From Microgenomates group bacterium (GTDB lineage: Bacteria > Patescibacteriota > Microgenomatia > Daviesbacterales > UBA10151), in NCBI GenBank assembly GCA_041659805.1, contig JBAZXP010000001.1, forward strand, positions 576,589 to 640,588: DNA of 64,000 nt, written 5' to 3'. Position numbers and translations under genes: made by a program. This document shows, one piece after another, positions 267 through 37,446 of the stretch (positions are counted from its first letter, which is position 1; each line of letters starts with the position of its first letter). The notes below the pieces were generated by a model, which saw only the letters and a program-made list of their open reading frames with translations, had not been told where the DNA came from and ran no database searches.

Positions 267-1985
267 TTATTGGATTCGGTACATTTGATCGCCAATTTGT
301 TTTATGTTTTTCTCATTCTCAAATTTTTGTAAAAAAGAAGGAAATTCTTTAAGCACTTCTCTTGGGAATTGCTCAGTATTAAATTTAACTACGTCCGCTT
401 TAGATTTTTTGAGCTCTTTCATAAATATATCTGAATTATTGTCGATAATTGCCCGATATAAAACGTTTGAGAGAGCATACAGATGTGGCATGTCATAGCT
501 GCTGTAGCCATTTACCAAGTAGCATTGATGGTATGTAGAAGCTAGCTGAACCTTACTAATATAGTTTAAACCCGTAATGATATCAGGATAGGCGTTTAAG
601 TGAGTAACAGGAATCTCCAGTAGAACTAATTTCTTTGGTAAGCATAAATTTTTAAGAGTGAATTGATTACTATCAATATATTTTTCTGAATGAGTAGTTA
701 TATTGGTTGGTAAGTATTCAAGGAAGAAAAGAAGAAGCAATATTGCTGAAAGTAAGCGTATGTTTATTTTCATTTGTAGTCTTTTAATTGTTTGGAGAGC
801 AAAATATACGACTGCGATAATGAATAGGAAATACCAACGCGAAGGAGCTCTTACTTCTTCCTGAACCAAAGGCACTATTTTTAGGATTAAGTTGTATGGA
901 GTCGGAATATATGCGTAAGCACCGTTAAAATTTATTCTGGGTCCAAGAGAACTTAAAAAACCCACAATTAAAAGAATCAAAAAAAATAATTGTTCATTAT
1001 TTATGTCAAGTTTAAAAACTAATTTATTTTGGATTTTCTTTACTTCAAAGAGACTAAATATGAAAAGTGTAAAAAGAAGTAACCCCGGAAAAGATGCCTG
1101 TCCACCCATTGTATTTTTATTAAAGTTGTTCCATTTTTCCGCTAGTAATGACTGATGTAATATTGAGTCGATATGCGATGTGAATAAGTAATCGCTCAGA
1201 TGCGCAGAATATGTCACATTCTCTTTGAGTTCATGGCTGATGTTGTATAATTTTTTAGTATCAATAAAATTCTTAATAAAGTATCCATCCAACAGAACAA
1301 AAACAATCAGGATAATGCTTAGATTACGTATTAGGTGTATTCTTTTATCTTTTGTTCTGAGAATTTCAATAGAATAAAAAAGTATAATTATGAGCATTAG
1401 GAAAAATGAAAGATAAGCAGCTGCGAGGAATTGAATTGCTAAAAATATCCCCGCAAAAACCAAATTTCTTCGTTCTGTGTTCGTGCGGGATTTTAAAATA
1501 AAATATAAAGAAAAAAAGAATGGCCAAAAAGAAAGCATTGGAAAGTGGCTTATTTCAAGATGCGTAAATGGAGAAAAAATCGTAAATAAACTTCCAAAGA
1601 ATGCCAAGAAGTTCTTTTTAAAAATTTGTCTCCAAAAAAGAAATGTCGCAAAATAATTTAAAATAAAAGTAATAAAAAAAACAATATTAAAGGAGAGAAT
1701 AACGTTATGAGTGAGTAGATAGAAAGGTGTTTCTATAATTGCTTGGGGTAATAATAAATCAGAAAATAACAGAGAGTTCTTATACGGATAGAAAGCATTT
1801 GTATCAAAGTAACCATTAAAGTTTAAAGTAGTGAGTTTGGAAACATTTTGAAAAATCATCCAATCTATCGTTGGGTAGTCTCTCCAATCCATTAGGTTTG
1901 TAGACATATTAAAAAATAAAGATCGAAAGACAAAGATTAAGATTATGAGATAGAGAACAAAGAATAGAATGAAAGACTTTTTCAT
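267..1985 (-). CDS. Polytopic membrane protein with C-terminal soluble domain; putative GT-C-fold glycosyltransferase
   Basis: 578-aa ORF. Likely ATG start at 1985; the track start at 2003 is GTG. More than 10 predicted hydrophobic helices, then a ~170-aa hydrophilic C-terminal domain. Architecture resembles GT-C (PMT/ArnT/OST-like) enzymes. No family-specific motif was verified. Confidence 0.45.
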   Translation of the reverse strand: MKKSFILFFVLYLIILIFVFRSLFFNMSTNLMDWRDYPTIDWMIFQNVSKLTTLNFNGYFDTNAFYPYKNSLLFSDLLLPQAIIETPFYLLTHNVILSFNIVFFITFILNYFATFLFWRQIFKKNFLAFFGSLFTIFSPFTHLEISHFPMLSFWPFFFSLYFILKSRTNTERRNLVFAGIFLAIQFLAAAYLSFFLMLIIILFYSIEILRTKDKRIHLIRNLSIILIVFVLLDGYFIKNFIDTKKLYNISHELKENVTYSAHLSDYLFTSHIDSILHQSLLAEKWNNFNKNTMGGQASFPGLLLFTLFIFSLFEVKKIQNKLVFKLDINNEQLFFLILLIVGFLSSLGPRINFNGAYAYIPTPYNLILKIVPLVQEEVRAPSRWYFLFIIAVVYFALQTIKRLQMKINIRLLSAILLLLFFLEYLPTNITTHSEKYIDSNQFTLKNLCLPKKLVLLEIPVTHLNAYPDIITGLNYISKVQLASTYHQCYLVNGYSSYDMPHLYALSNVLYRAIIDNNSDIFMKELKKSKADVVKFNTEQFPREVLKEFPSFLQKFENEKNIKQIGDQMYRIQ

Positions 1986-2035
1986 CAATTGCAAATATAT
2001 CACACAACTTTGCTTAATAATACTGAGAAACTATG

Positions 2036-2647
2036 TTATTTTTCTAACAATATTAAAACGTGCATTTTTCTTCCGAACAATAAATTGAAAGGAAAAATAT
2101 AAAGTGGCAAATTGTTTTGCCATTTAAGGATATTTAGTTTATTTAACTTGAATAGCTCTTTCCACTCTTTATCTCGCTGGTAATTATAAACAAGCTTGAC
2201 TCCATATGGTTTATTACCGACCCAATCCATAACCTTTAATATATAGAATTCAAATTTATTTGAGTATATATGGTCTTTTATTAAGATATATCTTTTAGTA
2301 ACTCTCTGAGCTTCTTTTAATAAGACGTTTATATCTGTAGTGTGATGTAGCACATCAACCATCATGCAGAGATCGAATGAGTTATTTTTATAGGGAATTT
2401 TTTTGCCGTTAAAATATTTACATGGAATTAGGCATTTATTCCGTTTAAATACCTCAAGTCCTTGAATTTCTAAAGTTGAGCGTTTTTTCTGAATGATTGA
2501 ACTTATTAACCCATCACCGCAACCAATATCTAAAACACTTTGAGTGTTTTTAGGAATAATGGCATTAATTTTTTGTTCCAGAATATGGATTCTTTTATTG
2601 TGAATTAATTTGTTATGAAGGAATTGAGGGATGTAATTGGTAAGCAT
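2036..2647 (-). CDS. Class I SAM-dependent methyltransferase
   Basis: Motif I VLDIGCGDG, a Rossmann-fold methyltransferase signature. 1-nt stop/start overlap (TAATG) with the upstream GT2 gene suggests translational coupling. Confidence 0.7.
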   Translation of the reverse strand: MLTNYIPQFLHNKLIHNKRIHILEQKINAIIPKNTQSVLDIGCGDGLISSIIQKKRSTLEIQGLEVFKRNKCLIPCKYFNGKKIPYKNNSFDLCMMVDVLHHTTDINVLLKEAQRVTKRYILIKDHIYSNKFEFYILKVMDWVGNKPYGVKLVYNYQRDKEWKELFKLNKLNILKWQNNLPLYIFPFNLLFGRKMHVLILLEK

Positions 2648-3804
2648 TAAAATCTTGACTTTCTGGGGAGTAGAATTATTCCCAAGAAAAAGGTATTAAA
2701 AAATACTTGAAAGCCTAATTGAATAAGAAAAGCAGCTGGGATTACCATTCTCATCGTGACACTGTAATCTAATGCTCCGAAACCTTGTTGATACCATCCA
2801 AGAAATGTTTTAGCAACTATGATTAAACCCAGTAATAATGCAACTCCACATATTAACGTGGCTCTGTTTAAATGTTTTTTTATTAAAGTGAAAGCTAGCG
2901 GGTGGGTAGTCGGAATAATATTGTATTGGTGAAGGAAAATCTTTGTAAATAACCCTAAGAAAAGAATTTGAATACCGATTGAAATAAAGGTCGCGGAAAT
3001 TAGTAATGTATGAACATCTAGATTTATTCCGAATATTTCTGCAGGTTTAAATAGTGTTAAGACAAATAAGACTGTTCCGCTTGAGATTAGAAATAAACCC
3101 GGTCCCAGGAATAACCAGTCTGGTGCAAAAAGCAGCATAAAATGCAATGTTTTAAATCCGTCATGCCAGGTTTTTAAATGAGGTTTCCTTTGGCGGCCGT
3201 CTTTGTGTAAGGTGATAGGGGTTTCGGCAATCTTCATGTTTAAAATACTTGCTTTGGCAACCATCTCTATTGCATATTCCATGCCTGTAGTCTGTAGTGC
3301 CATCTTCTTCCACGCCTTTTTGGTAAAAGCACGAAGACCACAATAAAAATCTCCAACAGGTGAGTGAAAGAAAATCCTACCTAAAAGCGATAACATTGGG
3401 TTCCCAAAGAGTTGATGTTGCCATGGCATAGCACCGGGCATAATTTTCCCGGCAAAGCGGTTGCCCATTACTAAATCAAAACCTTGTTGCGTTTTTTCTA
3501 CAAAGGGGGTTATTTCAGAAAAATCGTAACTATCATCGGCGTCACCCATTATGATGTATTCGCCCTTCGCTTGTTCTATACCGTTTTGCAGCGCCGAGCC
3601 ATATCCTTTTTCGGAAACGTGAACAACCCTGGCGCCTTCCTTCTTAGCTATCTGTATTGATTTATCGGTGCTGCCATTGTCAGCTACAATAATCTCATAT
3701 TTTAGTTTAAGGGATCGGAATGATTTATGTATTTTTTTTATACAGGTTGCAAGCGTCCGTTCCTCATTTAAACATGGCATAACGACTGAAAAATCATATT
3801 TCAT
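2647..3804 (-). CDS. GT2 polyprenyl-phosphate glycosyltransferase (DPM1/GtrB/ArnC-like) with C-terminal transmembrane region
   Basis: N-terminal VVMPCLNEE...ADNGSTD...GDADDS (DxD) GT-A motifs. C-terminal ~120 aa has 2-4 hydrophobic helices, as in GtrB/ArnC. The ATG at 3802-3804 is preferred over the TTG at 3840. Confidence 0.75.
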   Translation of the reverse strand: MKYDFSVVMPCLNEERTLATCIKKIHKSFRSLKLKYEIIVADNGSTDKSIQIAKKEGARVVHVSEKGYGSALQNGIEQAKGEYIIMGDADDSYDFSEITPFVEKTQQGFDLVMGNRFAGKIMPGAMPWQHQLFGNPMLSLLGRIFFHSPVGDFYCGLRAFTKKAWKKMALQTTGMEYAIEMVAKASILNMKIAETPITLHKDGRQRKPHLKTWHDGFKTLHFMLLFAPDWLFLGPGLFLISSGTVLFVLTLFKPAEIFGINLDVHTLLISATFISIGIQILFLGLFTKIFLHQYNIIPTTHPLAFTLIKKHLNRATLICGVALLLGLIIVAKTFLGWYQQGFGALDYSVTMRMVIPAAFLIQLGFQVFFNTFFLGIILLPRKSRF

Positions 3805-3844
3805 TGATTGAATCTTAGTAGAGAAGTTAAGAAAATTCAATAGA

Positions 3845-4434: not shown

Positions 4435-5166
4435 TTAACGTGATAGAAGATTAAACCTTATGATTTCCCAAAGGGCGTTTATACCGTCTTTCCAACCAAT
4501 CTTCTTCCCCTCCTCGTAAGTTCGTCCATAATACGATATGCCGACCTCAAAAATTTTTAGTCTTTTATCTTTTGATATTCTTGCAGTGAGCTCCGGCTCG
4601 ATACCGAACCTTTTACTTACCAGTCTTGGTGCAATGGATCTGATTAAATCTCCTCTGAAAACTTTGTATCCGGTTTCCATGTCAGTAAGGTTAAGGTTCG
4701 TTAACATATTCGAAAAAGAAGTTAAAAAACGATTTACCTGATAATGCCAAAAAAACAAGACACGATGAGGTCTGTTAGAAATGAATCTTGATCCATAGAC
4801 AACGTCGGCACTGTGTTTTATAAATGGTTCCATAAGTAAAGGGTAGTCTTCAGGGTTATATTCCAGATCAGCGTCTTGTACCAAAACTATGTCTCCGGTA
4901 GTAGCTAAAAACCCATCTTTTAAGGCTGCTCCTTTACCGGCATTCTTTTTTTTAAAAATAGTTTTGAAAGAAATATATTTATTTTTTTTCTCGAAAAGCT
5001 CTACTGTTGCCTTGATTTGCTCAACTGATTTATCTTTTGACCCGTCATCGACCAGGATGATTTCTTTATGAAAACCGTTTGCAGAAGAATCAATCACTGC
5101 CTCAACAGTTTTTTGGATGAATCCTTCTTCATTATAAACAGGGATGACTATCGACAATTTATTCAT
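4435..5166 (-). CDS. GT2 glycosyltransferase, dolichyl/polyprenyl-phosphate sugar synthase-like (soluble)
   Basis: SIVIPVYNEE...LVDDGSKD...VQDADLE motifs (GT-A DXD). 243 aa, no TM segment. Confidence 0.75.
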   Translation of the reverse strand: MNKLSIVIPVYNEEGFIQKTVEAVIDSSANGFHKEIILVDDGSKDKSVEQIKATVELFEKKNKYISFKTIFKKKNAGKGAALKDGFLATTGDIVLVQDADLEYNPEDYPLLMEPFIKHSADVVYGSRFISNRPHRVLFFWHYQVNRFLTSFSNMLTNLNLTDMETGYKVFRGDLIRSIAPRLVSKRFGIEPELTARISKDKRLKIFEVGISYYGRTYEEGKKIGWKDGINALWEIIRFNLLSR

Positions 5167-6865: not shown

Positions 6866-8764
6866 ATGGATAGCGTTGTTGAGGTTTTTAAATTTTTGAC
6901 TGGGACAGTTTTTGCTATTTTAGTAGGAGCTTCTTTAATTGTTAGATTAGAGAAAAAAATATCCGTTAATATTTTATTAATTTCTTTGGTATTAGGGATC
7001 GTATTAATTTCTTTTATTTATTTATTTTTTACTTATTTGAAAATACCATTTTCGGCGATCAATCTCTTTTTGATTCTATTCGTTTTGATAAGAATGTTCA
7101 AATTTAAGCCTCAATTAGAATTGCATCTTCGTAATTTAATTTTACCTGTTATTTTTACTTTCACGGGGACTATTTTGTTGAACAGCAAATTATTTTTTGA
7201 GGGCTTTGATAAAAATGGGGGATTTATGTTGGCTAAAGGAAATGTTGATGCGCTGTGGCATATAGCACTGCAAGAATCATTAAAAATATCTGTGCCCCCT
7301 GTAAACCCTTTGTATTCCGGACAAATTTTATCGGGGTACCATTATTTAAATGATATATATTGGTCTTGGTTTAGTAGGGTTTTTGATATAACAACTATTA
7401 ATCTTTGTATCTTTTGGGCTCCTTTATTTATTTCAATGTTATTTGTTGCAACTACGCTATTGCTTACACTAAAGATATTTGGTGATAAAAGAGTTGCATA
7501 TGTTGCTTCGAGCATTGTAGTTTTTACATCGAGTTTGTCTTTTATAGCTCCGCTATTTTTCTCTAAAGCAGGGTTTCATCAATCTGTTTTTTGGTTGGAT
7601 CAACCGACGTACTATATTTTTAATCAACAATTGACCTTATCGATTGCAATTATAAATATAATTCTATTTTTGTTTATAAGTTCGTACAGGAAATGGTGGT
7701 GGGCGATAGGATTGCTTGTAGGAAGCTTAGCCGGAGTTAAGGTTTATGGATTGCTTATCATTTTCCCTGCTATTTCATTAATAGGTTTTTATCTTTGGTA
7801 TAAAAAGAAAGATTGGAATTATATTGGCTTACTTTTGTTATCGATTTTTATTTCTGTTTTTACAGTTTTTATTGAGGGTTCAAGCTCAGGATTTCCGTTT
7901 TACCTTGATCCAGGATTATTGATTCGGTCAATGTTTACTGATCCTTGGAGATTAAGCTATCCTGACTGGGAGGTTCATAGGCTTATTTTAGTAGAGCGGC
8001 ATGATTGGCTTAGATTAGCTTATCTTTGGGTTAAAGGACTAGCTATTTTTCTAATCGGAAATTTTAATTTAAAAATTTTATCGTTATTTTTTATTCCGAT
8101 TTTATTAAGAAATAAAAAATTATCTAAGGATAATAAAATTATTTTGTTGTTTTCATCAGTAATCATTGTATTAAGTATAAGTTCCGGTCTTTTGTTGGCA
8201 CAAAGAGCTGTTTCTTGGAATGTTGTTCAATTTCTCGTATATGCGCAGTTACCGTTAGTGGTAGTATTGGTATTTTGTGTCACAAAACTTTTGAATTACA
8301 GATACCAAGTTATAGTTTTTATTCTTATCTTTATTGTTGGAGTTCCTTCATCACTTCATCCGTTAAAATTTCATTCAAATATAAATTCATATATTTATTA
8401 TTCACCTGAGTTTATGAATATTTTGCAACAGGTTAGAACACTTCCGCCTAGTGTACAGATTATTGTAGGGGAAAAATATTACCTAAATAGTGTGGCGCCT
8501 GCTTTTGCAGGCCGTGGAGTTTATCTGGCAGATATCAATGTTCTTGATTTATTGCTTCCCTTCAGTGCAAAAGACAGAATCGAATATATTAAACAATTAG
8601 AAAATAGAGAAATCGAATGTCAGCCGAATCAGTATCTCATTTCTGATAAAAATCAAACGATTAGCTTACAAAATCAAAACGAATTTCAATTTGAAATAAT
8701 TTCTGAACGACGTAAGGTCTATCTTTTTAAATGTGAAAAAAGAAGTAGTTTACTGATTGATTGA
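6866..8764 (+). CDS. Polytopic membrane protein with C-terminal extracytoplasmic domain (GT-C-like architecture)
   Basis: 632-aa ORF, ATG start. Many TM helices, then a hydrophilic ~130-aa C-terminus. Immediately follows the previous gene (4-nt gap). Confidence 0.45.
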   Translation: MDSVVEVFKFLTGTVFAILVGASLIVRLEKKISVNILLISLVLGIVLISFIYLFFTYLKIPFSAINLFLILFVLIRMFKFKPQLELHLRNLILPVIFTFTGTILLNSKLFFEGFDKNGGFMLAKGNVDALWHIALQESLKISVPPVNPLYSGQILSGYHYLNDIYWSWFSRVFDITTINLCIFWAPLFISMLFVATTLLLTLKIFGDKRVAYVASSIVVFTSSLSFIAPLFFSKAGFHQSVFWLDQPTYYIFNQQLTLSIAIINIILFLFISSYRKWWWAIGLLVGSLAGVKVYGLLIIFPAISLIGFYLWYKKKDWNYIGLLLLSIFISVFTVFIEGSSSGFPFYLDPGLLIRSMFTDPWRLSYPDWEVHRLILVERHDWLRLAYLWVKGLAIFLIGNFNLKILSLFFIPILLRNKKLSKDNKIILLFSSVIIVLSISSGLLLAQRAVSWNVVQFLVYAQLPLVVVLVFCVTKLLNYRYQVIVFILIFIVGVPSSLHPLKFHSNINSYIYYSPEFMNILQQVRTLPPSVQIIVGEKYYLNSVAPAFAGRGVYLADINVLDLLLPFSAKDRIEYIKQLENREIECQPNQYLISDKNQTISLQNQNEFQFEIISERRKVYLFKCEKRSSLLID

Positions 8765-8788: not shown

Positions 8789-9568
8789 ATGAGTTTTTTA
8801 TATGATTGGTTTACTCCTAATATCCCTGTTTGGGAAAAGACTTTAAAGGGTTATAAGAATAAAGATAATCTTCTTTTTTTGGAAATCGGATGTTTTGAAG
8901 GGCAGGCAACCTCGTGGCTTTTAAAAAATGTATTGACTCATCCTAGTTCAAAAATAGTGGTAATAGATACTTTTCAAGGCGGTGACGACCAAAAAGATTT
9001 CGGAGTTAAAACTGGTAAGTTATTTGAAAGATTTAAAGAGAATTTAAAGGATTATATTTCTGAAAATCCTAAGATGAATAAAATTATTATTAAAAAAGGT
9101 TTTTCAGGAGAGGTTTTAAGGTTACTATCAGGAGAGTTTGATTTTATTTATGTTGACGGTTCGCATATTGCCAAAGACGTATTGGAAGATATTGTATTGA
9201 GCTGGAATTTATTGAAGGATAACGGAATAATAATTTTTGATGATTATGGATGGGATCGTTACAAGGATGAAACATTGAATCCCACACCCGCAATAAATTC
9301 TTTTTTAAAGGTATATAAGGGTTGGTACAGAATTTTACATTCCGGTTATCAAATAGTAGTGCAAAAAAAAGGCAAAAAAAATTATACGAATAAATCAACT
9401 GGAATTTTATATAAAAAATTGATATTAGCAGATTATTGTTCTAGACAAGAGATTAATGAATACTCTGAATTGATACAATTTAACAAAGTTATCAAAAATT
9501 CGAAATTCTATAAATTTTGGAGGATATATTGTGGTTTAAAAGATTACTTTAAACATAAACAAGATTGA
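8789..9568 (+). CDS. SAM-dependent methyltransferase (Methyltransf_24/TylF-like class I)
   Basis: LEIGCFEGQAT (motif I), VVIDTF and FDFIYVDGSH motifs typical of the macrocin-O-methyltransferase-like family. Confidence 0.6.
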   Translation: MSFLYDWFTPNIPVWEKTLKGYKNKDNLLFLEIGCFEGQATSWLLKNVLTHPSSKIVVIDTFQGGDDQKDFGVKTGKLFERFKENLKDYISENPKMNKIIIKKGFSGEVLRLLSGEFDFIYVDGSHIAKDVLEDIVLSWNLLKDNGIIIFDDYGWDRYKDETLNPTPAINSFLKVYKGWYRILHSGYQIVVQKKGKKNYTNKSTGILYKKLILADYCSRQEINEYSELIQFNKVIKNSKFYKFWRIYCGLKDYFKHKQD

Positions 9569-11892: not shown

Positions 11893-13026
11893 ATGAGGGT
11901 AATTAAGTTTATATTTTTTTCATTCATTCTTTTTTGGCTATGCCTGTTTTCTATTTTAATTATCAGTCGTGATGTTATTAATTATAGACAAGGGCAAGAG
12001 TTTACTAATATTTTGCATACAACTTCGGAATCAATTTTAAGCTTGTCACCTCTTTATCCCTGGGCAAATTTCGACGGCGTTCATTATCTGGCAATTGCGA
12101 AATATGGATATACGACTGATGCGGGATTTTTTCCTTTATATCCGGTAATGATTAATGTGCTCAGTTATTTAATCGGCGATTATTTTTTATCCGGATTAAT
12201 TCTTTCGAATTTATTTTTTATATCAGGACTGATAATTTTTTACAAATTAATCAGGTTGGATTTTACTAAAGAAGTTTCCTATCAATCAGTAATATTTTTA
12301 TTGATTTTTCCTACTGCTTTTTTCTTTTCTGCTATTTATAGTGAAAGCCTCTTCTTCTTATTGCTGATTCTGTCCTTCTATTTTGCCAGAAAGAGAATGT
12401 GGTTTTGTGCTGCGCTTTCAGGAATATTTTTATCTGCAACAAGGATAGTAGGAGTCTTAATATTACCCGCTTTGATGTGGGAATTTTATGCACTGGAAAA
12501 AGATAATATTAGAACAAATCTTAAAAAGTTTATTCCATTATTACTTGTTCCATTTGGGTTATTTTCATATATGTTTTTTAATTTTATGAATTGGGGAAAT
12601 CCTCTTTACTTTATTAAAGCACAAGGGATGTTGAGTAATAATCGGAGTGTGGATCAAATTATACTTTTTCCACAAACGTTATTCAGATATTTTAAGATCA
12701 TTACAACTGTTTCGTATCAGCAATTTGAATGGTGGATCGCCTTACTCGAGATATGTATAACTTTGTTGGTTCTATGTTTATTGTTTATTACGTATAAACA
12801 AAAAGTTAGGGTTTCATATATAATTTTTAGCCTTTTCGCACTACTGGTGCCCTTATCAACTGGCACATTAAGTGGTGTGCCGCGTTATGTTTTGGTCGCG
12901 TTCCCGGTATTTATTTCGATTGCTTTAATGAAAAACCAGTTATTTAAAATAGTTTATAGCATAGCAAGCGTATTTTTGTTAATAATATTATGGATGTTGT
13001 TTTCTAAAGGATACTATGTGGCTTAA
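11893..13026 (+). CDS. Polytopic membrane protein, possible GT-C/mannosyltransferase-like
   Basis: 377 aa, ~9-10 hydrophobic helices. First loop contains NFDGVHYLAIAKYGY, an acidic/aromatic loop as in GT-C enzymes. Not verified. Confidence 0.4.
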   Translation: MRVIKFIFFSFILFWLCLFSILIISRDVINYRQGQEFTNILHTTSESILSLSPLYPWANFDGVHYLAIAKYGYTTDAGFFPLYPVMINVLSYLIGDYFLSGLILSNLFFISGLIIFYKLIRLDFTKEVSYQSVIFLLIFPTAFFFSAIYSESLFFLLLILSFYFARKRMWFCAALSGIFLSATRIVGVLILPALMWEFYALEKDNIRTNLKKFIPLLLVPFGLFSYMFFNFMNWGNPLYFIKAQGMLSNNRSVDQIILFPQTLFRYFKIITTVSYQQFEWWIALLEICITLLVLCLLFITYKQKVRVSYIIFSLFALLVPLSTGTLSGVPRYVLVAFPVFISIALMKNQLFKIVYSIASVFLLIILWMLFSKGYYVA

Positions 13027-25310: not shown

Positions 25311-25859
25311 ATGTCCAGATTAATTTTTATACTTTTTGCAATTATTTTATTAATTTATTTATTAATTCCGGGACCTTCTTCGATTAATGATTTTCCCGGG
25401 TTGCCTAATTCTGCTAAATCTAATCTTCCCGGGGATACGGTTCAAGTTCCTAATGTTTCAGGTTATTTTTCAGATAATTTCAGAGCATTTGTGACAAATT
25501 TTTATAAAATGAGTTATAAATCGCAAGTAGTAATTCCATTTTTGCCGATCAGATTAAATTATCCTCCTGAATTTGCCTATACCACTATTAAAGATCAAAC
25601 TCGGAGCACATATTTAGAAGAATATGTATACCCTTTGAGAGATTCGCTTTTTATAAATGGTTATGAACCGTTTTATGAAAACGGTAAACCGAAATTTTTT
25701 GGTTCTGTTAAATCGGATGAACAAAATGATATTTATTACAATAAAACTACTTTAAGATTTTATCCATCATCTATTTGGGTAAGAGTTGCTGTTTGGCTGG
25801 GGATTTTAGCTTCTGTTTATCTTATTTGGACATCAGCAAAGAGAGTAATACATGATTAA
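25311..25859 (+). CDS. Small membrane protein (N- and C-terminal TM helices), unknown function
   Basis: 182 aa. Hydrophobic N-terminus and C-terminal WVRVAVWLGILASVYLIW helix with a Tyr/Phe-rich extracytoplasmic middle. Confidence 0.4.
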   Translation: MSRLIFILFAIILLIYLLIPGPSSINDFPGLPNSAKSNLPGDTVQVPNVSGYFSDNFRAFVTNFYKMSYKSQVVIPFLPIRLNYPPEFAYTTIKDQTRSTYLEEYVYPLRDSLFINGYEPFYENGKPKFFGSVKSDEQNDIYYNKTTLRFYPSSIWVRVAVWLGILASVYLIWTSAKRVIHD

Positions 25860-26745
25860 TTTAGTAATCATTATTGTTAATTTTAATACTGAGAAACTTG
25901 TGTTGGAATGTTTGGACTCCATATTTAAAAACAAGCCTGACGGTGAATTTAAAGTAATTGTAGTTGACAATAATTCAACAGATGATTCAGTCGAGTCTAT
26001 TAAAAAACTATTTCCGGAAGTTGACTTAATTGAAAGCAAAGAAAATTTGGGTTTTGCAGGAGGAAATAATCTAGCGTTAACAGGAATTAATGCAAAGTAT
26101 TATTTACTTTTAAATTCTGACACATTGGTAAATAAAAATTCCTTAGATAATTTGGTTAATTTTGCAGAAAACTCAGATTATGGAATATGTTCTTGTAAGC
26201 TAACCTATCAGAATGGATCGTTCCAGCCAAACGCAGGAGAGCTGCCTTCTTTTATCCCGGTACTTTTATGGTTATCAGGTCTTGATGACATTTTAGGAAA
26301 AATAATTCATATAAAATCATATCAAGCCAGAGACAAGGGTTATTATAAGAATAAAACTCAAGTGGGGTGGATTTCAGGATCAGTAATGTTAATCAAAAAG
26401 GATGTAATTGAAAAAATCGGAGTACTGGACGAAGGTATCTTTATGTACGGGGAAGACGTTGATTACTGTTTCCGGGCAAACCGGGCCGGATTTAGAGTGG
26501 GCTGGACAGATGAGGCTGAAATTATCCATATTGGCGGAGCAAGCTCAAGCAAGCCGAAATATAATCAATGGATAGGAGAATTTCGAGGGATGATTTATGT
26601 ATATAATAAGTTATTCGGTTTTATGCCAGCTCAATTAATCCGAATATTTTTTTATTTTTTTATTTTGATAAGAGCATTTGCGTTTTTGGTTCTTGGTAAA
26701 ATTTTATATAGTAGAACTTATGCAAAAATTTTTATTAATCTTTGA
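25852..26745 (+). CDS. GT2 glycosyltransferase (rhamnosyltransferase-like)
   Basis: VIIIVNFNT...VVDNNSTDDS...LNSDTL and GEDVDYCFR motifs of the GT2/WbbL-like family. Confidence 0.8.
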   Translation: MINLVIIIVNFNTEKLVLECLDSIFKNKPDGEFKVIVVDNNSTDDSVESIKKLFPEVDLIESKENLGFAGGNNLALTGINAKYYLLLNSDTLVNKNSLDNLVNFAENSDYGICSCKLTYQNGSFQPNAGELPSFIPVLLWLSGLDDILGKIIHIKSYQARDKGYYKNKTQVGWISGSVMLIKKDVIEKIGVLDEGIFMYGEDVDYCFRANRAGFRVGWTDEAEIIHIGGASSSKPKYNQWIGEFRGMIYVYNKLFGFMPAQLIRIFFYFFILIRAFAFLVLGKILYSRTYAKIFINL

Positions 26746-29645: not shown

Positions 29646-30842
29646 ATGAAAATTTTAATGTTAACACCATATTTACCATATCCTCCTTCATCGGGCGGTC
29701 AAATTAGATCCTACAATCTAATTAAACAGCTTTCAAAAAAACACGAGATTACCTTATATTCTTTAATAAAATATGAAAATGAAAAAAAGTATGTTACAGA
29801 ACTTGAAAAATACTGTAAGTCGGTAAAAATTTTCAGAAGGCCTCAAAAACCATGGACTCCCACTAATATTTTTAAGACAGCAATGAGCACCTATCCTTTT
29901 TTAGTGATTAGAAATTATTCTTCAGAAGAAAAGAATGATATAACTAAAACATTAAAAAAAGAACATTTTGATTTGATACACGCAGAAACTTTTTATGTAA
30001 GTCCACACATTCCCACGACAGATATACCAATGGTATTGGTAGACCAGACAATTGAATTCCAGGTATACCAACACTATGTGCAAACCTTTAAGTGGTTTTT
30101 CTTAAAACCGATGCTTCTAATTGATGTTTTAAAAATTAAATATTGGGAAACATATTTTTGGAAAAAAGCGAAAAAAGTTGTGGCTGTTTCTGTGTCTGAC
30201 GCCAAAAAAATGAGACAACTCGTTCCGGGTCTAAATGTTTCCGTTGTGCCCAACGGGGTTGGTGAAGATTTAATGGAGGAAATTCCAATTCATTTTTCTC
30301 AAAAAATATTATTTATGGGAAATTATGCCTGGTTACAAAATATAGAAGCTGCCAGGATTTTAGCGAAAGAAGTCTTCCCTTTAATTAAAAAACAGGTGCC
30401 TGAAGCTCAGTTAATTATTGCTGGCCAATATACTGAAAAGATTGCTGAACTTGAATCAACTGATGTCAAATTAATAAATTTAGGACTTGATGATATTGAA
30501 GGGGTTAAAAGAGCTTATCAGGAATGTGGGATACTAGTTGCTCCTTTATACGGACCGGGAGGAACAAGATTAAAAATATTGGGAGCGATGGCTGCTAAAC
30601 TACCTGTTGTAACAACAAACGTTGGGATTGAGGGTATTGAGGCTGTTAATGGCAGACATGCTTTATATGGAGATAGTCCAGAGTCACTAGCTGAGTTAGC
30701 GGTAAAACTTCTGGTAGATAAGAAGCTTTACATAAATGTTGCAAATAATGCCAGAAGATTGGTTGAAGAAAAGTATACTTACACTGCCGTTGCAGACCAA
30801 TTGGAAAGTATTTATCAGGAGGTAAAAAATAATGCAGGATAA
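29646..30842 (+). CDS. GT4 (family 1) glycosyltransferase
   Basis: N-terminal MKILMLTPYLPYPPSSGGQIRSYNLIKQL (GT4 N-domain) and a C-terminal Rossmann domain. Confidence 0.8.
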   Translation: MKILMLTPYLPYPPSSGGQIRSYNLIKQLSKKHEITLYSLIKYENEKKYVTELEKYCKSVKIFRRPQKPWTPTNIFKTAMSTYPFLVIRNYSSEEKNDITKTLKKEHFDLIHAETFYVSPHIPTTDIPMVLVDQTIEFQVYQHYVQTFKWFFLKPMLLIDVLKIKYWETYFWKKAKKVVAVSVSDAKKMRQLVPGLNVSVVPNGVGEDLMEEIPIHFSQKILFMGNYAWLQNIEAARILAKEVFPLIKKQVPEAQLIIAGQYTEKIAELESTDVKLINLGLDDIEGVKRAYQECGILVAPLYGPGGTRLKILGAMAAKLPVVTTNVGIEGIEAVNGRHALYGDSPESLAELAVKLLVDKKLYINVANNARRLVEEKYTYTAVADQLESIYQEVKNNAG

Positions 30843-31707
30843 ATTATCTATTGTTATTGTAAATTATAATTCAGGCGATTTTTTGAGTGATTGTTTGGAA
30901 TCTATTTATAAAAGCGACAAAATAATAGATTTTGATATTTGGGTAGTCGATAGTGCTTCGTCCGATAAAAGTATAGATAACGCTAAAAAAAGGTTTCCTA
31001 AAATTAATTATCTTTTGAACAAAGACAATGTAGGTTTTACCAAGTCTAACAACCAAGCATTAAGGAAAGTTAAAAATGAATTTATTTTAATTCTTAATCC
31101 GGACACCAAAGTTTTACCCGATACTTTGAGTCACATGATTAAATTTATAAAAAGTAATCCTGAAGTCGGTGCTGCTACATGCCGGGTGGAACTTGCAAAT
31201 GGAAAAATAGACTGGGGATCACACAGAGGATTTCCGACACCAACGGCGTCTTTCTTCTATTATTTTTTGCATGATGATACCTATTACCATCTAAGTAATT
31301 TGGATATGACAAAAGATCACGAAGTGGATGCAATAACAGGAGCATTCTTTTTAACCAGAAAATCAGTTCTAGATAAAGTAGGATTATTTGATGAAGATTA
31401 TTTTATGTATGGGGAAGATCTAGATCTTTGTTTCAGAATTAAAAAGGCTGGGTATAAAATAATGTTTACACCAGAGGTTAAAATAATTCATTATAAGGGA
31501 GTTTCCTCTGGGATAAAACAACATAGTCAAGAAATTACGCAAGCTAGTAAAGAGTCTAAGATAAGAGCTTTTAATTCTTTTTATGAAACAATGAAAATTT
31601 TTTACCGAAAGAATCTTGCAAAAGACTATCCATTTTTTATAAATTGGTTAGTTTATTTAGGGATTAATTTAAAATGGTTTTTGGCTTTAAGGAAATTACA
31701 TGTATGA
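30832..31707 (+). CDS. GT2 glycosyltransferase
   Basis: LSIVIVNYNSGDFL...VVDSASSDKS...LNPDTK and GEDLDLCFR motifs. Confidence 0.8.
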   Translation: MQDKLSIVIVNYNSGDFLSDCLESIYKSDKIIDFDIWVVDSASSDKSIDNAKKRFPKINYLLNKDNVGFTKSNNQALRKVKNEFILILNPDTKVLPDTLSHMIKFIKSNPEVGAATCRVELANGKIDWGSHRGFPTPTASFFYYFLHDDTYYHLSNLDMTKDHEVDAITGAFFLTRKSVLDKVGLFDEDYFMYGEDLDLCFRIKKAGYKIMFTPEVKIIHYKGVSSGIKQHSQEITQASKESKIRAFNSFYETMKIFYRKNLAKDYPFFINWLVYLGINLKWFLALRKLHV

Positions 31708-32822
31708 GGATTGTAATTGATGCTCGTCTTTGGTCTGAGAGTGGGCTAGGAAGGTATATCAGAAACTTAGTATTGGAACTTGCAAAAATTGATTCAGCAA
31801 ATCATTATGATATTCTTCTTTTAAAAAAAGACTTTGACAAAATAGATTATTTTAGAAATAATTTTCATAAAGTTTTGGCTGATTTTAAGTGGTATGGGTT
31901 TGCTGAGCAGATTAAAATGCCAAAGTTATTAAATAGTTTAAAACCTGATTTGGTGCATTTCCCTCATTTCAATGTACCTATTTTATACAAAGGAAAGTTT
32001 GTAGTAACGATTCATGATTTAATTCATCAACATTATAAAACCAGAGAATCTACAACTCATAATAAATTGATGTATAGTATGAAAAATCTCGGATATAAAA
32101 AAATTTTTAGCAATGCTATTAAGAAAGCCGATAGAATTATTACTCCGTCAAAGTCCGTAAAGAACCAATTAATTAATGAATGGAATATAGATCAGGCAAA
32201 AATTGAGATTACTCCTGAGGCAGTAGATACTTCTTTAATAAATATTTCCAAGCAAATTAGGAATAATGATTTCCAAAAAGTAAGTCATAAATGGGGTATA
32301 AAAAAACCATATATTTTTTATGTCGGAAATGCTCAACCGCACAAAAATATAGAACGGTTAATTGAGGTATTTATTCAAATAAAAAATAAGTATTCTGAAT
32401 ATCAATTAATTTTGTCAGGCCCTGACAATTATTTTTGGAATAAAACTATAAAAAGATATAATGTTAAGGATTTAATTTTTACAGGTTTTTTAAGTGAGAG
32501 GGAACTCGTAACTTTGTATAAAAATGCTGATCTCTTTGTGCTCCCATCATTGGAGGAAGGATTCGGGATTCCTGTCTTGGAGGCAATGGCATGCGGTTGT
32601 CCTGTTGTATGTTCTAATACAGGGTCTTTACCAGAGGTTGCCGCGGATGCAGCTGTTTATTTTAACCCCCGGATTCTAAAAGATATGGAAGAAAAAATTT
32701 CTTCAGTTTTGGAAAACCGGAAATTTAGAAAAGAATTAATCGAAAAAGGTGAATTGAGATTTAAAAAATTTAGTTGGAAAAGATTAGCTCATCAAACTCT
32801 GGAAATTTATCTAAAATCTTAA
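31704..32822 (+). CDS. GT4 (family 1) glycosyltransferase
   Basis: EGFGIPVLEAMACGCPVVCSNTGSLPEVAADAAVYFNP. The ATG at 31704 overlaps the upstream stop (ATGA). Confidence 0.8.
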   Translation: MRIVIDARLWSESGLGRYIRNLVLELAKIDSANHYDILLLKKDFDKIDYFRNNFHKVLADFKWYGFAEQIKMPKLLNSLKPDLVHFPHFNVPILYKGKFVVTIHDLIHQHYKTRESTTHNKLMYSMKNLGYKKIFSNAIKKADRIITPSKSVKNQLINEWNIDQAKIEITPEAVDTSLINISKQIRNNDFQKVSHKWGIKKPYIFYVGNAQPHKNIERLIEVFIQIKNKYSEYQLILSGPDNYFWNKTIKRYNVKDLIFTGFLSERELVTLYKNADLFVLPSLEEGFGIPVLEAMACGCPVVCSNTGSLPEVAADAAVYFNPRILKDMEEKISSVLENRKFRKELIEKGELRFKKFSWKRLAHQTLEIYLKS

Positions 32823-33730
32823 ATTTTTTCTGCTGCGCGGAGTTTAGCACTACGGGAACGCGGGTTAACTTCAACTTCTGACTCTGTTGGCTCAATTGGT
32901 TTTTGAGTAATAATTTTGATCGAGTACTTTTCTTCCTCAATTTTAAAGAAATTCTTAACAATTCTGTCTTCCAACGAGTGGAAACTAATTACAACTATCC
33001 TACCGAAGGGTTGTAAAACATCTAGTGCTTGGGGTAATGCATCTTCCAGACTGCGTAACTCGTCATTTACAGCAATACGCAATGCTTGGAATACTTTTGT
33101 TGCCGGATGAATTTTGTTTACACGATTAAATCTTTTTACTGAAAGAATAATTTGTGATAATTTTTCTGTAGTATCAATTTTTTCACGACTTCTGTATTCG
33201 ATAATTTTTTTGGCAATAGGTTTTGCAAATTGCTCATCCCCGTATTTCCAAAATAGTTCTGTAAGCTCTGATAAATACAATCCGTTTACAAGATCAGCTG
33301 CTGTTAAACTTTGGGATCTGTTCATCCTCATATCTAAAGGTGCATTTTTATTAAAAGAGAATCCTCTTGAGGTTGTGTCTAATTGACTTGATGAAAGTCC
33401 CAGATCAAATAGTATACCTGCAGGATCCTGTTTCAGAAATTGCGACGAGATGTCTTTTAATTGAGAAAAATTTGCCTGACAGATAATTAATTTATCAGAA
33501 ACTGCCAGGAAACGGTCATTAACTAAATTAACCGTTAGCTTGTGTTTTTCAGCAACTTCTTTAATTGCCTCAAAATCCAAATCTATCCCCAATACATTTC
33601 CCCCTTCTTCAAGTATTTTATCCGTGTGCCCTCCGCCACCCAGATTGCAATCAATATACCAGGCATTTTTTTTGATTTTTAAATATTGGATTGCCTCGTT
33701 TGCCATGACTGGAATATGATATGTGCCCAT
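32819..33730 (-). CDS. rsmH: 16S rRNA (cytosine1402-N4)-methyltransferase RsmH (MraW)
   Basis: N-terminal HIPVMANEAIQYL...YIDCNLGGGGHT and C-terminal FHSLEDRIVK motifs. 303 aa. Confidence 0.9.
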   Translation of the reverse strand: MGTYHIPVMANEAIQYLKIKKNAWYIDCNLGGGGHTDKILEEGGNVLGIDLDFEAIKEVAEKHKLTVNLVNDRFLAVSDKLIICQANFSQLKDISSQFLKQDPAGILFDLGLSSSQLDTTSRGFSFNKNAPLDMRMNRSQSLTAADLVNGLYLSELTELFWKYGDEQFAKPIAKKIIEYRSREKIDTTEKLSQIILSVKRFNRVNKIHPATKVFQALRIAVNDELRSLEDALPQALDVLQPFGRIVVISFHSLEDRIVKNFFKIEEEKYSIKIITQKPIEPTESEVEVNPRSRSAKLRAAEKI

Positions 33731-34850: not shown

Positions 34851-34852
34851 AT

Positions 34853-35530: not shown

Positions 35531-35538
35531 AACTGTCT

Positions 35539-37446
35539 ATGAACATTACTAATTTAAATAAGAAAATAGATACTTTTAAAAAAACCGACTCATATAAAGT
35601 AAAAAAGAACCGGAAATCCAGAATAATTAAAATTCTTTTTGTAATCGGACTTTTATTCTTATTAGTTTATTTGCCTGCCAGAAATATTTATTCCTCGGCT
35701 AAACAAGCCATGCTTGGGGTAAATCAAATGAATGCCGGCATGAAAGCCGAGAATTTAGATGATATTAAGGTGGGTCTTGCAACTAGCAAGTCTGCAATCG
35801 GCAGTATAAATTTTTCTCTTAATTTTTATTTTTATCTTAGAATAATTCCGTTTGTAGGCGGGTATTACTCTGACGCAAAACATTTTGTAACAGCAGCGGG
35901 CTATGAAATGGATGCTGCCCAAACAATCGTAGATGGATTGGATCCTTACAAAAATGAGCTTGGCTTTACTGGACAATCAACAGCAGGTCAGGATCGTATA
36001 GCCCAAATTGTTAAGATTTTAGACAAAACATTACCTAATATTGATAAATTTGCGCCACATATGAAGAAAGCACGGGATGAAGTAAGTAGCATTGATGTTT
36101 CAAAATATCCTGAACAAATTGGTAATAGGCAATTAAGATCCAGGGTGGACGAAGCTAAGAATTTTATTATTGGTGCTCATGTTGCAGTGACAGATGCCAG
36201 GCCGGCACTGGAAATTGCACCGAGTATGTTGGGAGAACCATCGCCCAAAACCTATCTTATGTTATTTCAAAACGATAAGGAGCTTCGCGCAACCGGAGGA
36301 TTTTTAACTGCCTACGCCTTTTTAAAGCTTGATAGAGGTCATTTAACTACAACCCAGTCTGATGATATCTATAGACTCGATGAAAAATTGCTTAAGGTAT
36401 GCTTGAATAAAATTTGTCCGCTGACTCCTCCTGCACCTATTGTTAAGTATTTGCCTGAAGTTACCGGAAAACCACGTTCTGCCTGGTCAATGAGGGATTC
36501 TAATTTATCTCCAGACTTACCAACTTCTATGAAGGAATTTGAAAAAATGTATTCAATAATTGATTCAACGAATGCTTTCGACGGAATTATTATGATTGAT
36601 ACAAATGTGGTGGAAGAGTTAATTAAAATTACAGGGCCCGTTGAAGTAAATGGTACAAAATACAGTGCGGATAAAGATAATAGATGTAATTGTGCTAATG
36701 TTATTTATGAGCTTGAGCATTATGCAGAGATTGCTTCAAAAGGAGAAGCAGATAGAAAAGAAGTGGTGGGGACTTTGATGCAAACAATACTCGCCAGATT
36801 GCTTGGATCGGGTGCAGATAAGCTACCTACCTTTATTAATGTCGGGGTAAAATTGTTAAACAGTAAAAATATCATGATGTATATGCATGATAACAAGCCT
36901 CAGCAAGCCTTCGCCTCTTTAAATTGGACCGGAGAAATCAAGAGAGATGTTTCAGGTGATTACTTGCATATAAATGATTCCAACTTCGCAGGCGGAAAAT
37001 CAAATCTTTATGTAACAGAAAAGGTGAATTTAGCAGTTAAAGTTGAGGGTGATGGAACAGTGAAAAATAAATTAACAATTGATTATAAAAATCCCCAATC
37101 TTTTAATACATGGTTAAATGGTATCAACCGTAGCTATGTCAGGGTTTACGTTCCTAAAGGTTCAAAGTTGACCTTTTCCAAGGGCTCAGATGATATTGTG
37201 AATGCTGTTAATGATGATAATTTGAATAAAACTTATTTTGAGGGTTTCGTTCAAGTCAGACCGCAAAATTCAAGAACATTAGTTTTAGAATATACTCTGC
37301 CATTTAAAGTTACAGATAAAAAATACCCGCTATTAATTCAAAAACAGCCAGGAACTAAAGATCATCATTATACAATTAAGATAAACGGTGGGGCTAAAGC
37401 TGATTTCGATCTAACTACAGATAATTTGTTAAATCTCTCTTTCTGA
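35539..37446 (+). CDS. Membrane-anchored secreted protein of unknown function (possibly DUF4012-like)
   Basis: 635 aa. N-terminal TM anchor (IIKILFVIGLLFLLVYL), then a large hydrophilic domain. Family assignment is from memory only and unverified. Confidence 0.35.
   Translation: MNITNLNKKIDTFKKTDSYKVKKNRKSRIIKILFVIGLLFLLVYLPARNIYSSAKQAMLGVNQMNAGMKAENLDDIKVGLATSKSAIGSINFSLNFYFYLRIIPFVGGYYSDAKHFVTAAGYEMDAAQTIVDGLDPYKNELGFTGQSTAGQDRIAQIVKILDKTLPNIDKFAPHMKKARDEVSSIDVSKYPEQIGNRQLRSRVDEAKNFIIGAHVAVTDARPALEIAPSMLGEPSPKTYLMLFQNDKELRATGGFLTAYAFLKLDRGHLTTTQSDDIYRLDEKLLKVCLNKICPLTPPAPIVKYLPEVTGKPRSAWSMRDSNLSPDLPTSMKEFEKMYSIIDSTNAFDGIIMIDTNVVEELIKITGPVEVNGTKYSADKDNRCNCANVIYELEHYAEIASKGEADRKEVVGTLMQTILARLLGSGADKLPTFINVGVKLLNSKNIMMYMHDNKPQQAFASLNWTGEIKRDVSGDYLHINDSNFAGGKSNLYVTEKVNLAVKVEGDGTVKNKLTIDYKNPQSFNTWLNGINRSYVRVYVPKGSKLTFSKGSDDIVNAVNDDNLNKTYFEGFVQVRPQNSRTLVLEYTLPFKVTDKKYPLLIQKQPGTKDHHYTIKINGGAKADFDLTTDNLLNLSF

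Follow-up and report, generated by a model that had tools for sequence, protein, structure and literature searches.

Systems in which a polyprenyl-phosphate sugar synthase, a flippase and a membrane-embedded glycosyltransferase of the GT-C fold work together have been described as three-component systems (PMC11127046). They include GtrB/GtrA/Gtr* of Shigella and Salmonella, CsbB/GtcA/YfhO, GacI/GacL and systems that transfer pentofuranoses. Many GT-C paralogues are found together in the synthesis of arabinogalactan, lipomannan and lipoarabinomannan (LM/LAM) by mycobacteria and corynebacteria, to which Ppm1, PimE, MptA-C, AftA-D and EmbA-C contribute, whereas the haloarchaeal Agl system (AglJ, AglS, Agl23) serves N-glycosylation of the S-layer. 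A fourth type is formed by Wzx/Wzy loci with a DUF4012 gene, such as the capsular polysaccharide/exopolysaccharide (CPS/EPS) locus of Bifidobacterium longum 105-A (PMC6744442). Here we describe a 64-kb stretch of DNA (contig JBAZXP010000001.1 of assembly GCA_041659805.1; hereafter the window) from a bacterium of the candidate phyla radiation (CPR), in which positions 267-37446 probably constitute a lineage-conserved locus for the biosynthesis of a cell-envelope glycoconjugate, located upstream of the division and cell-wall (dcw) genes and apparently acting in two coupled stages.

CPR bacteria account for much of the diversity of bacteria, almost none of them has been cultured, and the chemistry of their envelopes is essentially unknown. 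The source organism is an ultra-small, Daviesbacteria-type member of the CPR with about 1.1 Mb of genome, its nearest named relatives being metagenome-assembled genomes of Candidatus Daviesbacteria, and about 3% of the contig of about 1.13 Mb is given to this one glycan locus. Literature searches yielded no account of the locus, nor of an expansion of GT-C enzymes or mannosyltransferases in CPR/Patescibacteria.

Gene content and conservation of the locus

The window is densely coded and AT-rich (GC about 0.29-0.40). The span 267-37446 (about 37 kb) holds 32 genes, and Pfam scans were run on all 32 open reading frames (ORFs). Glycosyltransferases (GT) are encoded by 17 of them, namely seven of the GT-C type, two family 2 enzymes (GT2) that resemble polyprenyl-phosphate sugar synthases, five of family 4 (GT4) and three other GT2 (Table 1). 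They are accompanied by a Bac_transf protein, a Wzy_C/O-antigen-ligase-like protein, an LbH acetyltransferase, three S-adenosylmethionine (SAM) methyltransferases and a DUF4012 ectoprotein. Since 19 of the 32 consecutive genes encode enzymes that form glycan bonds, and since their order recurs in other genomes, the clustering is clearly not due to chance. No glycan role can be demonstrated for the PfkB-family kinase, the S-adenosylhomocysteine (SAH) hydrolase, the VWA and MoxR proteins, RsmH and two unknown ORFs. The gene classes listed in a previous reading of this DNA by a model that saw the sequence alone (the sequence-only reading) are all present where it had put them, including the enzymes for methylation and acetylation, except that the SGNH esterase lies beyond the end of the span. 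Its emphasis on the combination of synthase-like GT2 enzymes with many GT-C proteins was justified as well: the combination is real, and it is a hallmark of extracytoplasmic glycosylation (PMC11127046).

The locus was compared with GCA_028687915.1 (L001, L004, L007), GCA_000992645.1 (L005), a Logan contig (L006), CAZDEH010000006.1 (L008) and JBBTSA010000010.1 (L009). The core gene order is kept at 44-90% amino-acid identity in these five other Daviesbacteria-type genomes or contigs. It starts with the gene for the soluble GT2 resembling dolichol-phosphate mannose synthase (DPMS), which is divergent from that for the 5227-type GT-C (proteins are named here by the start of their coordinates), followed by the PIG-V-like GT-C, the PMT_2 genes and the DUF3863-like protein with six transmembrane (TM) helices. 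It then continues with GT4, GT4, GT2, LbH, a protein of 182 amino acids (aa), GT2, Wzy_C, PMT_2, GT4, GT2, GT4, GT4, Bac_transf and DUF4012. Apart from this core, the loci differ in the GT-C genes of the 6866 and 267 types, in the TM-bearing GT2, the methyltransferases and the PfkB/SAH hydrolase pair, and in how many PMT_2 paralogues they have. The density of GT-C genes is high, with seven here, on a contig of about 1.13 Mb, and nine in the locus of GCA_028687915.1. Thus, the lineage has conserved this locus, the edges of which are plastic. The hypervariability that the sequence-only reading expected from a comparison of related genomes was not encountered, as variation around the conserved core is limited to the edges, the tailoring genes and the number of GT-C copies, and the idea of a hypervariable island was rejected on the basis of synteny.

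Instead of the methyltransferases, the left edge of L005 (positions 1-5462) encodes a GHMP kinase, a nucleotidyltransferase, a radical-SAM enzyme that binds B12 and an Acyl_transf_3 protein, a hint that the sugar donor is tailored differently there. The 53.9-kb contig L008 is titled 'uncultured Gammaproteobacteria bacterium' and shows the same syntenic locus with 55-81% amino-acid identity; since it carries a CPR locus in synteny, it is probably mis-binned or mislabelled.

Table 1 Genes of the glycan locus and of its edges (coordinates in the window)
Position	Strand	Feature	Basis
1..262	+	3' end of GT4-like gene (526 aa in source genome)	L003, same genome, offset +4774
267..2003	-	GT-C, DUF6311-related family, ~9 TM helices and ~147-aa C-terminal soluble domain	hhalign
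2036..2647	-	Cytoplasmic class I SAM methyltransferase, no TM helices	Methyltransf_11/23, E 1e-10
2647..3840	-	Polyprenyl-phosphate sugar synthase-like GT2, 4 C-terminal TM helices	Glycos_transf_2, 103 bits
3845..4432	-	Cytoplasmic class I SAM methyltransferase	Methyltransf_23/11, E 9e-13
4435..5166	-	Soluble polyprenyl-phosphate sugar synthase-like GT2 (DPM1/Ppm1-type)	Glycos_transf_2, 116 bits
5227..6861	+	GT-C, widespread family, ~150-aa C-terminal alpha/beta domain	AlphaFold2 and Foldseek
6866..8764	+	GT-C, narrow family, four helices ahead of catalytic-type loop	AlphaFold2 and Foldseek
8789..9568	+	Class I methyltransferase, Methyltransf_24 type	Methyltransf_24, 64 bits
9565..11842	+	PfkB-family kinase and SAH hydrolase	PfkB, 121 bits; AdoHcyase, 454 bits
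11893..13026	+	GT-C, PIG-V/GT76-like, ~10 TM helices, no C-terminal domain	Mannosyl_trans2
13016..14422	+	GT-C, PMT_2 type, 111-aa C-terminal domain	PMT_2, 60 bits
14432..15982	+	GT-C, PMT_2 type, 152-aa C-terminal domain	PMT_2, 35 bits
15984..17840	+	Signal peptide, ~370-aa DUF3863-like ectodomain and 6 C-terminal TM helices	Pfam, hydropathy
17858..18895	+	GT4 (GT-B), cytoplasmic	Glycos_transf_1, 81 bits; 66-76% identity in relatives
18907..20289	-	VWA protein	Pfam VWA
20291..21634	-	MoxR AAA+ ATPase	Pfam bpMoxR, 113 bits
21693..22622	+	Unknown ORF, one TM helix	
22668..23795	+	GT4	Pfam; orthologues 65-90% identity
23770..24696	+	GT2	Pfam; orthologues 51-78% identity
24704..25306	+	LbH (hexapeptide) acetyltransferase	Hexapep, 61 bits; kept in all relatives
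25311..25859	+	182-aa protein, TM helix at each end, ~125-aa middle domain	No Pfam match
25852..26745	+	GT2	Glycos_transf_2, 79 bits
26678..28174	+	Wzy_C/O-antigen-ligase-like polytopic protein, ~130-aa loop	Wzy_C, 29.7 bits
28161..29639	+	GT-C, PMT_2 type, 116-aa C-terminal domain	PMT_2, 34 bits
29646..30842	+	GT4	Pfam
30832..31707	+	GT2	Pfam
31674..32822	+	GT4	Pfam
32819..33730	-	RsmH (MraW) 16S rRNA methyltransferase, housekeeping	Methyltransf_5, 321 bits
33765..34850	+	GT4	Glycos_transf_1, 96 bits
34853..35530	+	Small monotopic initiating phosphoglycosyl transferase	Bac_transf, 208 bits, full length
35539..37446	+	DUF4012 protein, N-terminal TM helix, ~580-aa ectodomain	DUF4012, 89 bits
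37986..38834	-	SGNH/GDSL esterase, membrane-anchored or secreted	Lipase_GDSL_2, 42 bits

GT-C proteins, putative donor synthases and a membrane-bound ectoprotein

According to hydropathy, ten proteins in the span are polytopic. Seven of them are GT-C_A-type enzymes: four pass Pfam cut-offs, three for PMT_2 and one for PIG-V, two are assigned by their AlphaFold2 (AF2) models and one by profile-profile comparison with hhalign. Each has 9-13 hydrophobic segments, and the GT-C core consists of about 7-13 TM helices (PMC11127046). The sequence-only reading had counted at least eight such proteins, one of which (15984-17840) turned out to be of a different kind; the number could nevertheless reach eight, since the Wzy_C protein is countable as GT-C_B, the class in which O-antigen ligases are placed (PMC10920833). 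The C-terminal soluble domain ascribed to these proteins is present in six of the seven (110-150 aa) and is missing from the PIG-V-like protein.

The strongest PMT_2 match, the 13016 protein, carries an invariant 'W.DE' ('W.DEAINV') directly after the first TM helix, and it matches the Agl23-type model TIGR03663 with an E value of 2e-10 and a score below the NCBIfam cut-off. The corresponding first large loop (loop 1) holds an invariant 'HTDIARDF' in the 14432 protein and an invariant 'ADWHSWRQADTAAV' in the 28161 protein. For the 11893 protein, with an invariant 'PWANFDG.HY' in loop 1, the similarity to PIG-V is at family level only: Mannosyl_trans2 (PF04188) scores 26.5 bits against a cut-off of 22.4 over profile positions 24-247 of 443, the L006 orthologue also gives the match, and PMT_2 matches weakly. 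Single-sequence searches of the PDB with the 13016, 28161 and 11893 proteins were empty or returned chance matches.

Three proteins (267, 5227 and 6866) lack a significant Pfam or NCBIfam match even at E<=10, and PDB searches with the profiles of their families gave no match in one case, a single chance match in another and transporter-like noise at E>0.1 in the third. The GT-C status of 5227 and 6866 rests on structure and not on sequence, since hhalign ties both families only weakly to that of the PMT_2 protein 13016 (12% and 14%). The AF2 model of 5227 (pLDDT 87.9, pTM 0.87) is an all-helical membrane bundle, and all 19 Foldseek matches in the PDB at E<=1e-3 are GT-C enzymes (STT3, ArnT with a TM-score of 0.55-0.57, ALG9, ALG12, AftA, DPY19). 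The same holds for the model of 6866 (from a homologue alignment; pLDDT 86, pTM 0.89), which is likewise an all-helical membrane bundle with GT-C enzymes as 17 of 17 such matches (STT3, PglB, AglB, DPY19, AftA). In the Foldseek lists of the two models, transporters do not come up before E>0.1 and have TM-scores near 0.1. The 5227 family comprises 332 homologues of about 45% identity, none of the 120 listed having a Pfam match, and within loop 1 D40 is invariant and E36 nearly so. Its start at 5227 is that of a 100% identical database protein (P0010); the mechanical ORF (5068-6861) overlaps the neighbouring gene. For 6866 only nine homologues were found, none with a Pfam match, and D128, W131 and H132 are invariant.

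The 267 protein, for which M7 is the likely true start and in which D42 of loop 1 is invariant, belongs to a family with 3208 representatives at E<=1e-3. By hhalign this family is related to the 5227 family (93%, E 3.5e-7, 375 columns) and to the Pfam-validated PMT_2 family of 13016 (94.7%, E 6e-8, 287 columns). DUF6311 is assigned in precomputed Pfam lists to a 541-aa call of the protein and to an orthologue, but our own Pfam scans of the 578-aa ORF gave no DUF6311 match; within the family the match is weak in two of 40 members, and a few members also match PMT_2 weakly.

Classification of these proteins into established GT-C families, as envisaged in the sequence-only reading, was possible in part. 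The assignment of 11893 to GT76/PIG-V stands at the level of Pfam, but membership of GT39, GT66 or GT83 was not found. Regarding GT39, proteins of the window match PMT_2 (PF13231) only, and none matches PMT (PF02366), MIR or PMT_4TMC. Regarding GT66, no GT-C protein has an STT3 match in Pfam or a WWD.G motif in its C-terminal domain, the sole 'WWD' being that of the loop-1 WWDE of 13016, and the likeness to STT3-type enzymes (TM-scores of about 0.44-0.55) is that of the shared GT-C core. As for GT83, the NCBIfam scan gave no ArnT-type model for any GT-C protein, and ArnT is a structural match of 5227 only. An oligosaccharyltransferase role for 6866, whose top Foldseek matches are STT3 and PglB, was rejected in view of its small C-terminal domain and the lack of a WWDYG motif.

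An Asp or Glu that is invariant among homologues is found in the first large loop of all seven GT-C proteins, and not just in the three for which an acidic motif had been noted before. Family topology and a crude positive-inside count, which supports a cytoplasmic N-terminus and an outside loop 1 for three of the seven (267, 5227 and 28161), suggest that these residues would lie outside. They may correspond to the catalytic residues of ArnT or PglB.

The two synthase-like GT2 proteins share a DAD motif, at residue 100 in 2647 and at residue 98 in 4435. With 2647, whose orthologues carry GT2_TM_C, the best NCBIfam model is AglJ (136 bits), accompanied by Dol-P-hexose transferase, PpgS and ArnC, and the best PDB matches are Pyrococcus dolichol-phosphate mannose synthase (5mlz), GtrB (5ekp, residues 15-305) and ArnC. 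With 4435, AglJ is again the best model (82 bits), PgfS is second and ArnC also matches, and in the PDB 5mlz (E 8e-17) is followed by ArnC and GtrB. The latter protein, with 69-83% identity in relatives, is among the products of the best-conserved genes of the left module. Their assignment as polyprenyl-phosphate glycosyltransferases, as judged from these matches, is sound at the level of the family.

Methylated sugars are suggested by the interleaving of methyltransferase genes with the synthase genes and by the adjoining SAH hydrolase/PfkB pair. This pair, located between a methyltransferase gene and GT-C genes, is 92% identical in the closest relative; it occupies the same position in GCA_028687915.1 (L001/L004) and is absent from L005/L006. 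It may have been recruited to remove the SAH that sugar methyltransferases produce.

The protein at 15984-17840, which was rejected as a GT-C enzyme in view of an hhalign probability of 1.6% to the 5227 family, has a cleavable-looking signal peptide and an ectodomain rich in invariant Trp, Asp and Glu, placed outside by the positive-inside count. Its match to DUF3863 is weak, with an E value of 1.5e-3, and five of 23 homologues also match (best E 5e-5); the family profile finds 3lm3, the structure that represents DUF3863, with an E value of 0.9. DUF3863 is presumably a member of the glycoside-hydrolase/deacetylase superfamily. With 678 homologues, the protein is a conserved partner of PMT_2 genes. 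In P0167 (1064 aa, on a Logan contig of 6.8 kb) a PMT_2-type GT-C is fused at the N-terminal side to a protein of the 15984 type, the C-terminus of the GT-C replacing most of the signal peptide. This is a single instance, which may be due to sequencing or assembly read-through.

A probable two-stage pathway and its alternatives

In the scheme that we consider probable, donors, order of steps, topology, acceptor and product are predicted from the family or fold of each protein, the conservation of the acidic residue in loop 1 and the gene order. On the cytoplasmic face, the Bac_transf phosphoglycosyl transferase, which has one hydrophobic helix (residues 18-39), would start a glycan on polyprenyl phosphate; the five GT4 and three GT2 enzymes would extend it from nucleotide sugars, and the LbH enzyme would acetylate it. 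A flippase would then carry the glycan across the membrane, where the Wzy_C-like protein would polymerise it or ligate it to an acceptor, possibly with the DUF4012 ectoprotein as an accessory. DUF4012 is enriched in CPR and Gram-positive bacteria and has been linked to CPS/EPS clusters (Méheust et al.; PMC6744442). The 182-aa protein is found at the same place in all relatives examined (50-72% identity), directly after LbH and upstream of Wzy_C. In the second stage, the two DPMS/GtrB/ArnC-like GT2 enzymes would charge polyprenyl phosphate with monosaccharides, their number suggesting two donors. After flipping of the donors, the seven GT-C enzymes would each add a residue on the outer face to the glycan or to another acceptor, with catalysis via the acidic residue in the first outside loop. 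That the GT-C proteins use lipid-phosphate sugars is suggested by the co-location of their genes with the two synthase-like GT2 genes. The DUF3863-like protein, a secreted and membrane-anchored enzyme encoded beside the PMT_2 genes, would probably trim or remodel the product. The two parts appear tied into one pathway because in the right module the Wzy_C gene and the PMT_2 gene after it overlap, because the modules abut in relatives, and because of the P0167 fusion. Candidate acceptors are a polymer linked to the wall, a lipoglycan and proteins of the cell surface, for example pilins or an S-layer.

Several points weigh against this scheme. A Wzx, MurJ, ABC or GtrA flippase was found neither among the ORFs of at least 100 aa in the 64-kb window nor in the Pfam lists of L001-L006, and the intergenic gaps are too short for an overlooked GtrA-type gene. 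No chain-length regulator or LCP-type ligase was seen, and genes for nucleotide-sugar synthesis are missing from the locus in this genome. The Wzy_C score of 29.7 bits is below the cut-off of 31.7, even though the orthologues in L005/L006 are listed with Wzy_C, and single-sequence searching gave no useful PDB match for this protein. The donor sugar cannot be named since all NCBIfam equivalog scores of the synthases are far below the cut-offs, which are reached by none (e.g. 136 versus 325 bits for AglJ). The positive-inside count is uninformative for four of the seven GT-C proteins, their segmentation being too rough. Furthermore, the MoxR/VWA genes split the two modules here, and separate products are possible. 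Finally, the functions assigned here and to all CPR homologues are predictions.

It is conceivable, but rather unlikely, that protein is the main target. The PMT_2-type GT-C enzymes would then use polyprenyl-phosphate sugars to glycosylate secreted proteins (pilins, S-layer or other proteins of the surface) at O-linked sites, one residue at a time, in a manner that resembles actinobacterial Ppm1/Pmt, and the Wzy_C protein would be an O-oligosaccharyltransferase of the PglL/PilO type that transfers a glycan en bloc from undecaprenyl diphosphate (Und-PP). This is in line with the PMT_2 matches on three proteins, with the PMT match of an orthologue of 28161, and with the ranking of NCBIfam models for the synthases, AglJ belonging to archaeal S-layer glycosylation and PgfS, second for 4435, to streptococcal protein glycosylation. 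An LCP-type wall ligase is also missing from the window. The Wzy_C domain is common to O-antigen ligases and to the O-oligosaccharyltransferases PglL and PilO, but the 26678 protein could be a polymerase, a ligase or an O-oligosaccharyltransferase, and sequence does not separate these types within Wzy_C. On the other hand, MIR, PMT_4TMC and PF02366 matches are lacking among the window proteins, the locus has no obvious gene for a Ser/Thr-rich substrate, and seven different GT-C enzymes exceed, to our knowledge, the needs of any known system for protein O-mannosylation. Protein glycosylation and the two-stage synthesis of an envelope glycan are not exclusive and can both hold.

We regard it as unlikely that two or more independent pathways lie side by side, in which case one product would be made or decorated by the left module (1-18895, with the GT2 synthases, GT-C enzymes and methyltransferases), perhaps a lipoglycan that arises wholly outside like mycobacterial LM/LAM, while the right module (22668-37446) would represent a common exopolysaccharide locus of the Wzy type. 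The unrelated insert of 3.7 kb between the modules would fit such a division, as would the tailoring genes and the left edge, which vary irrespective of the right module, and L009 keeps the right module with only one GT-C gene of the left-module type upstream. However, a PMT_2 GT-C gene (28161) lies in the middle of the right module, with a reading frame overlapping that of the preceding Wzy_C gene, and in L004/L007, L005 and L006 the two modules are adjacent and keep their order. That the membrane proteins without a Pfam match are transporters, flippases or unrelated DUFs is highly improbable and already largely refuted: the lack of family matches and of profile matches in the PDB for 267, 5227 and 6866, and of a flippase in the locus, would agree with it, but every significant Foldseek match of the two models is a GT-C enzyme, hhalign ties 267 to a Pfam-validated PMT_2 family, the acidic loop-1 residue is conserved in each, and no large membrane protein of the span classifies as a transporter or Wzx, seven being positively GT-C.

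Starting from the two-stage scheme, a more far-reaching proposal can be made, which we put forward as speculative and improbable in its entirety. The product would be a complex, methylated and acetylated envelope heteroglycan, built largely on the outer face of the membrane by seven to nine GT-C enzymes, analogous to arabinogalactan/LAM and independently evolved. The 5227, 6866 and 267/DUF6311 types would represent new glycosyltransferase families, the 15984 type would be a new obligatory partner (a remodelling enzyme or a lipid-sugar flippase), and the polymer could serve the attachment of these ultra-small cells to hosts.

Apart from this proposal, seven to nine extracytoplasmic GT-C enzymes in a single locus is of the order reported for whole actinobacterial genomes. 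Heterologous biochemistry could start from three conserved targets, namely the DPMS-like GT2 that is soluble, the GT-C of the 5227 type and the DUF3863-like membrane protein, and these would also aid in interpreting data from cryo-electron tomography or glycomics of enrichments. A fold and probable role have been assigned to two protein families that lack Pfam annotation.

Surroundings of the locus and comparison with known systems

On its left side the locus is truncated by the start of the window, since the end of a GT4-like gene lies at 1-262 and two GT2 genes precede that gene further to the left (L003 1040-5036: Glycos_transf_2, Glycos_transf_2, Glycos_transf_1). At the right-hand end, the locus closes with the DUF4012 gene, which is directly followed by RecO in the relatives L008 and L009. 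The SGNH esterase gene outside 267-37446 is a variable accessory gene that is present only in L007 among the relatives. In the interior, the VWA and MoxR genes and the ORF at 21693 occur in this genome only, with no counterpart in L004-L009; in relatives, the modules abut at this place or, in one case, are separated by a PMT_2 gene of 421 aa. The bpMoxR family is that of the 'MoxR-vWA-beta-propeller ternary systems', and a beta-propeller partner of MoxR/VWA was not seen. A role of the pair as a defence insert was rejected, as there was no PADLOC match. The RsmH gene lies inside the glycan locus, on the opposite strand and about 10 kb from MraZ (43378-43782, +) and the dcw genes, a placement that is shared by L007 and L008 and not by L009.

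To the right of the locus the window contains RecO, a class II aminoacyl-tRNA synthetase, a PurF-like amidotransferase and then a complete dcw cluster (MraZ, PBP, Mur ligases, MraY, FtsW, MurG, FtsQ, FtsA, FtsZ), so that the glycan locus adjoins the division and cell-wall genes on their upstream side. Because this cluster is complete, the organism can be taken to make peptidoglycan. Between two Mur ligases of about 395 aa lies a 195-aa FAD_binding_4 (MurB-like) ORF (47154-47741). MurB usually has about 300 aa or more, and the gene may be truncated, split or unusually small. The genes beyond the cluster encode a GNAT acetyltransferase, an aminoacyl-tRNA synthetase of class I, a second protein of the SEDS type (FTSW_RODA_SPOVE), ribosomal protein L21, ParB and a signal peptidase. 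At 62287-63635, on the minus strand, a tRNA-Val (CAC) gene stands beside a gene for a 421-aa methyltransferase, which matches N6_N4_Mtase, PADLOC mad2 (58 bits) and type II methyltransferase models; a partner nuclease was not seen within the window.

Among the described systems, the Wzx/Wzy loci with DUF4012 resemble the right module in clustering Bac_transf, several GT4 and GT2 genes, an acetyltransferase, a Wzy_C-type protein and DUF4012. In contrast to these, no Wzx, tyrosine kinase or chain-length regulator was found here, a GT-C gene is embedded, and the Wzy_C match is below the cut-off. With the haloarchaeal Agl system the locus shares the probable use of lipid-phosphate-hexose donors and of GT-C enzymes that add sugar outside, but no score comes close to the equivalog cut-offs (325 and 126 bits), and an oligosaccharyltransferase of the AglB/STT3 type is missing.

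The synthesis of mycobacterial and corynebacterial arabinogalactan and LM/LAM offers a parallel in that many GT-C paralogues use polyprenyl-phosphate sugars outside on a primer that comes from the cytoplasm. AftA, AftB and Emb are among the structural matches, and one synthase is soluble and Ppm1-like. However, no protein has a Pfam match to mycobacterial GT-C families, genes of the decaprenyl-phospho-arabinose pathway were not seen, and the CPR lineage is unrelated. The parallel is one of logic and should not be taken as evidence of pathway homology.

In three-component systems, as is proposed here, a GT2 synthase is coupled to a GT-C enzyme that acts on a glycan from a separate Und-PP pathway (PMC11127046), and GtrB (5ekp) is one of the nearest relatives with a solved structure for the 2647 protein. 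The differences are that a GtrA-type flippase is not detectable here, that YfhO/Gtr-specific families give no match, that one synthase is soluble and the other has four rather than two TM helices, and that seven GT-C enzymes and two synthases are encoded instead of one each. Considering these comparisons, the locus belongs to none of their specific families, its memberships being at the level of the GT-C fold, PMT_2, PIG-V-like proteins, polyprenyl-phosphate GT2 and Bac_transf. No new mechanism is demonstrated, as the operation of a lipid-sugar synthase and GT-C enzymes beside an Und-PP pathway is a well-established principle; what is notable is how many and how diverse the GT-C enzymes of this 1.1-Mb CPR genome are, together with two conserved GT-C families that Pfam misses and a conserved, uncharacterised ecto-enzyme of the membrane.

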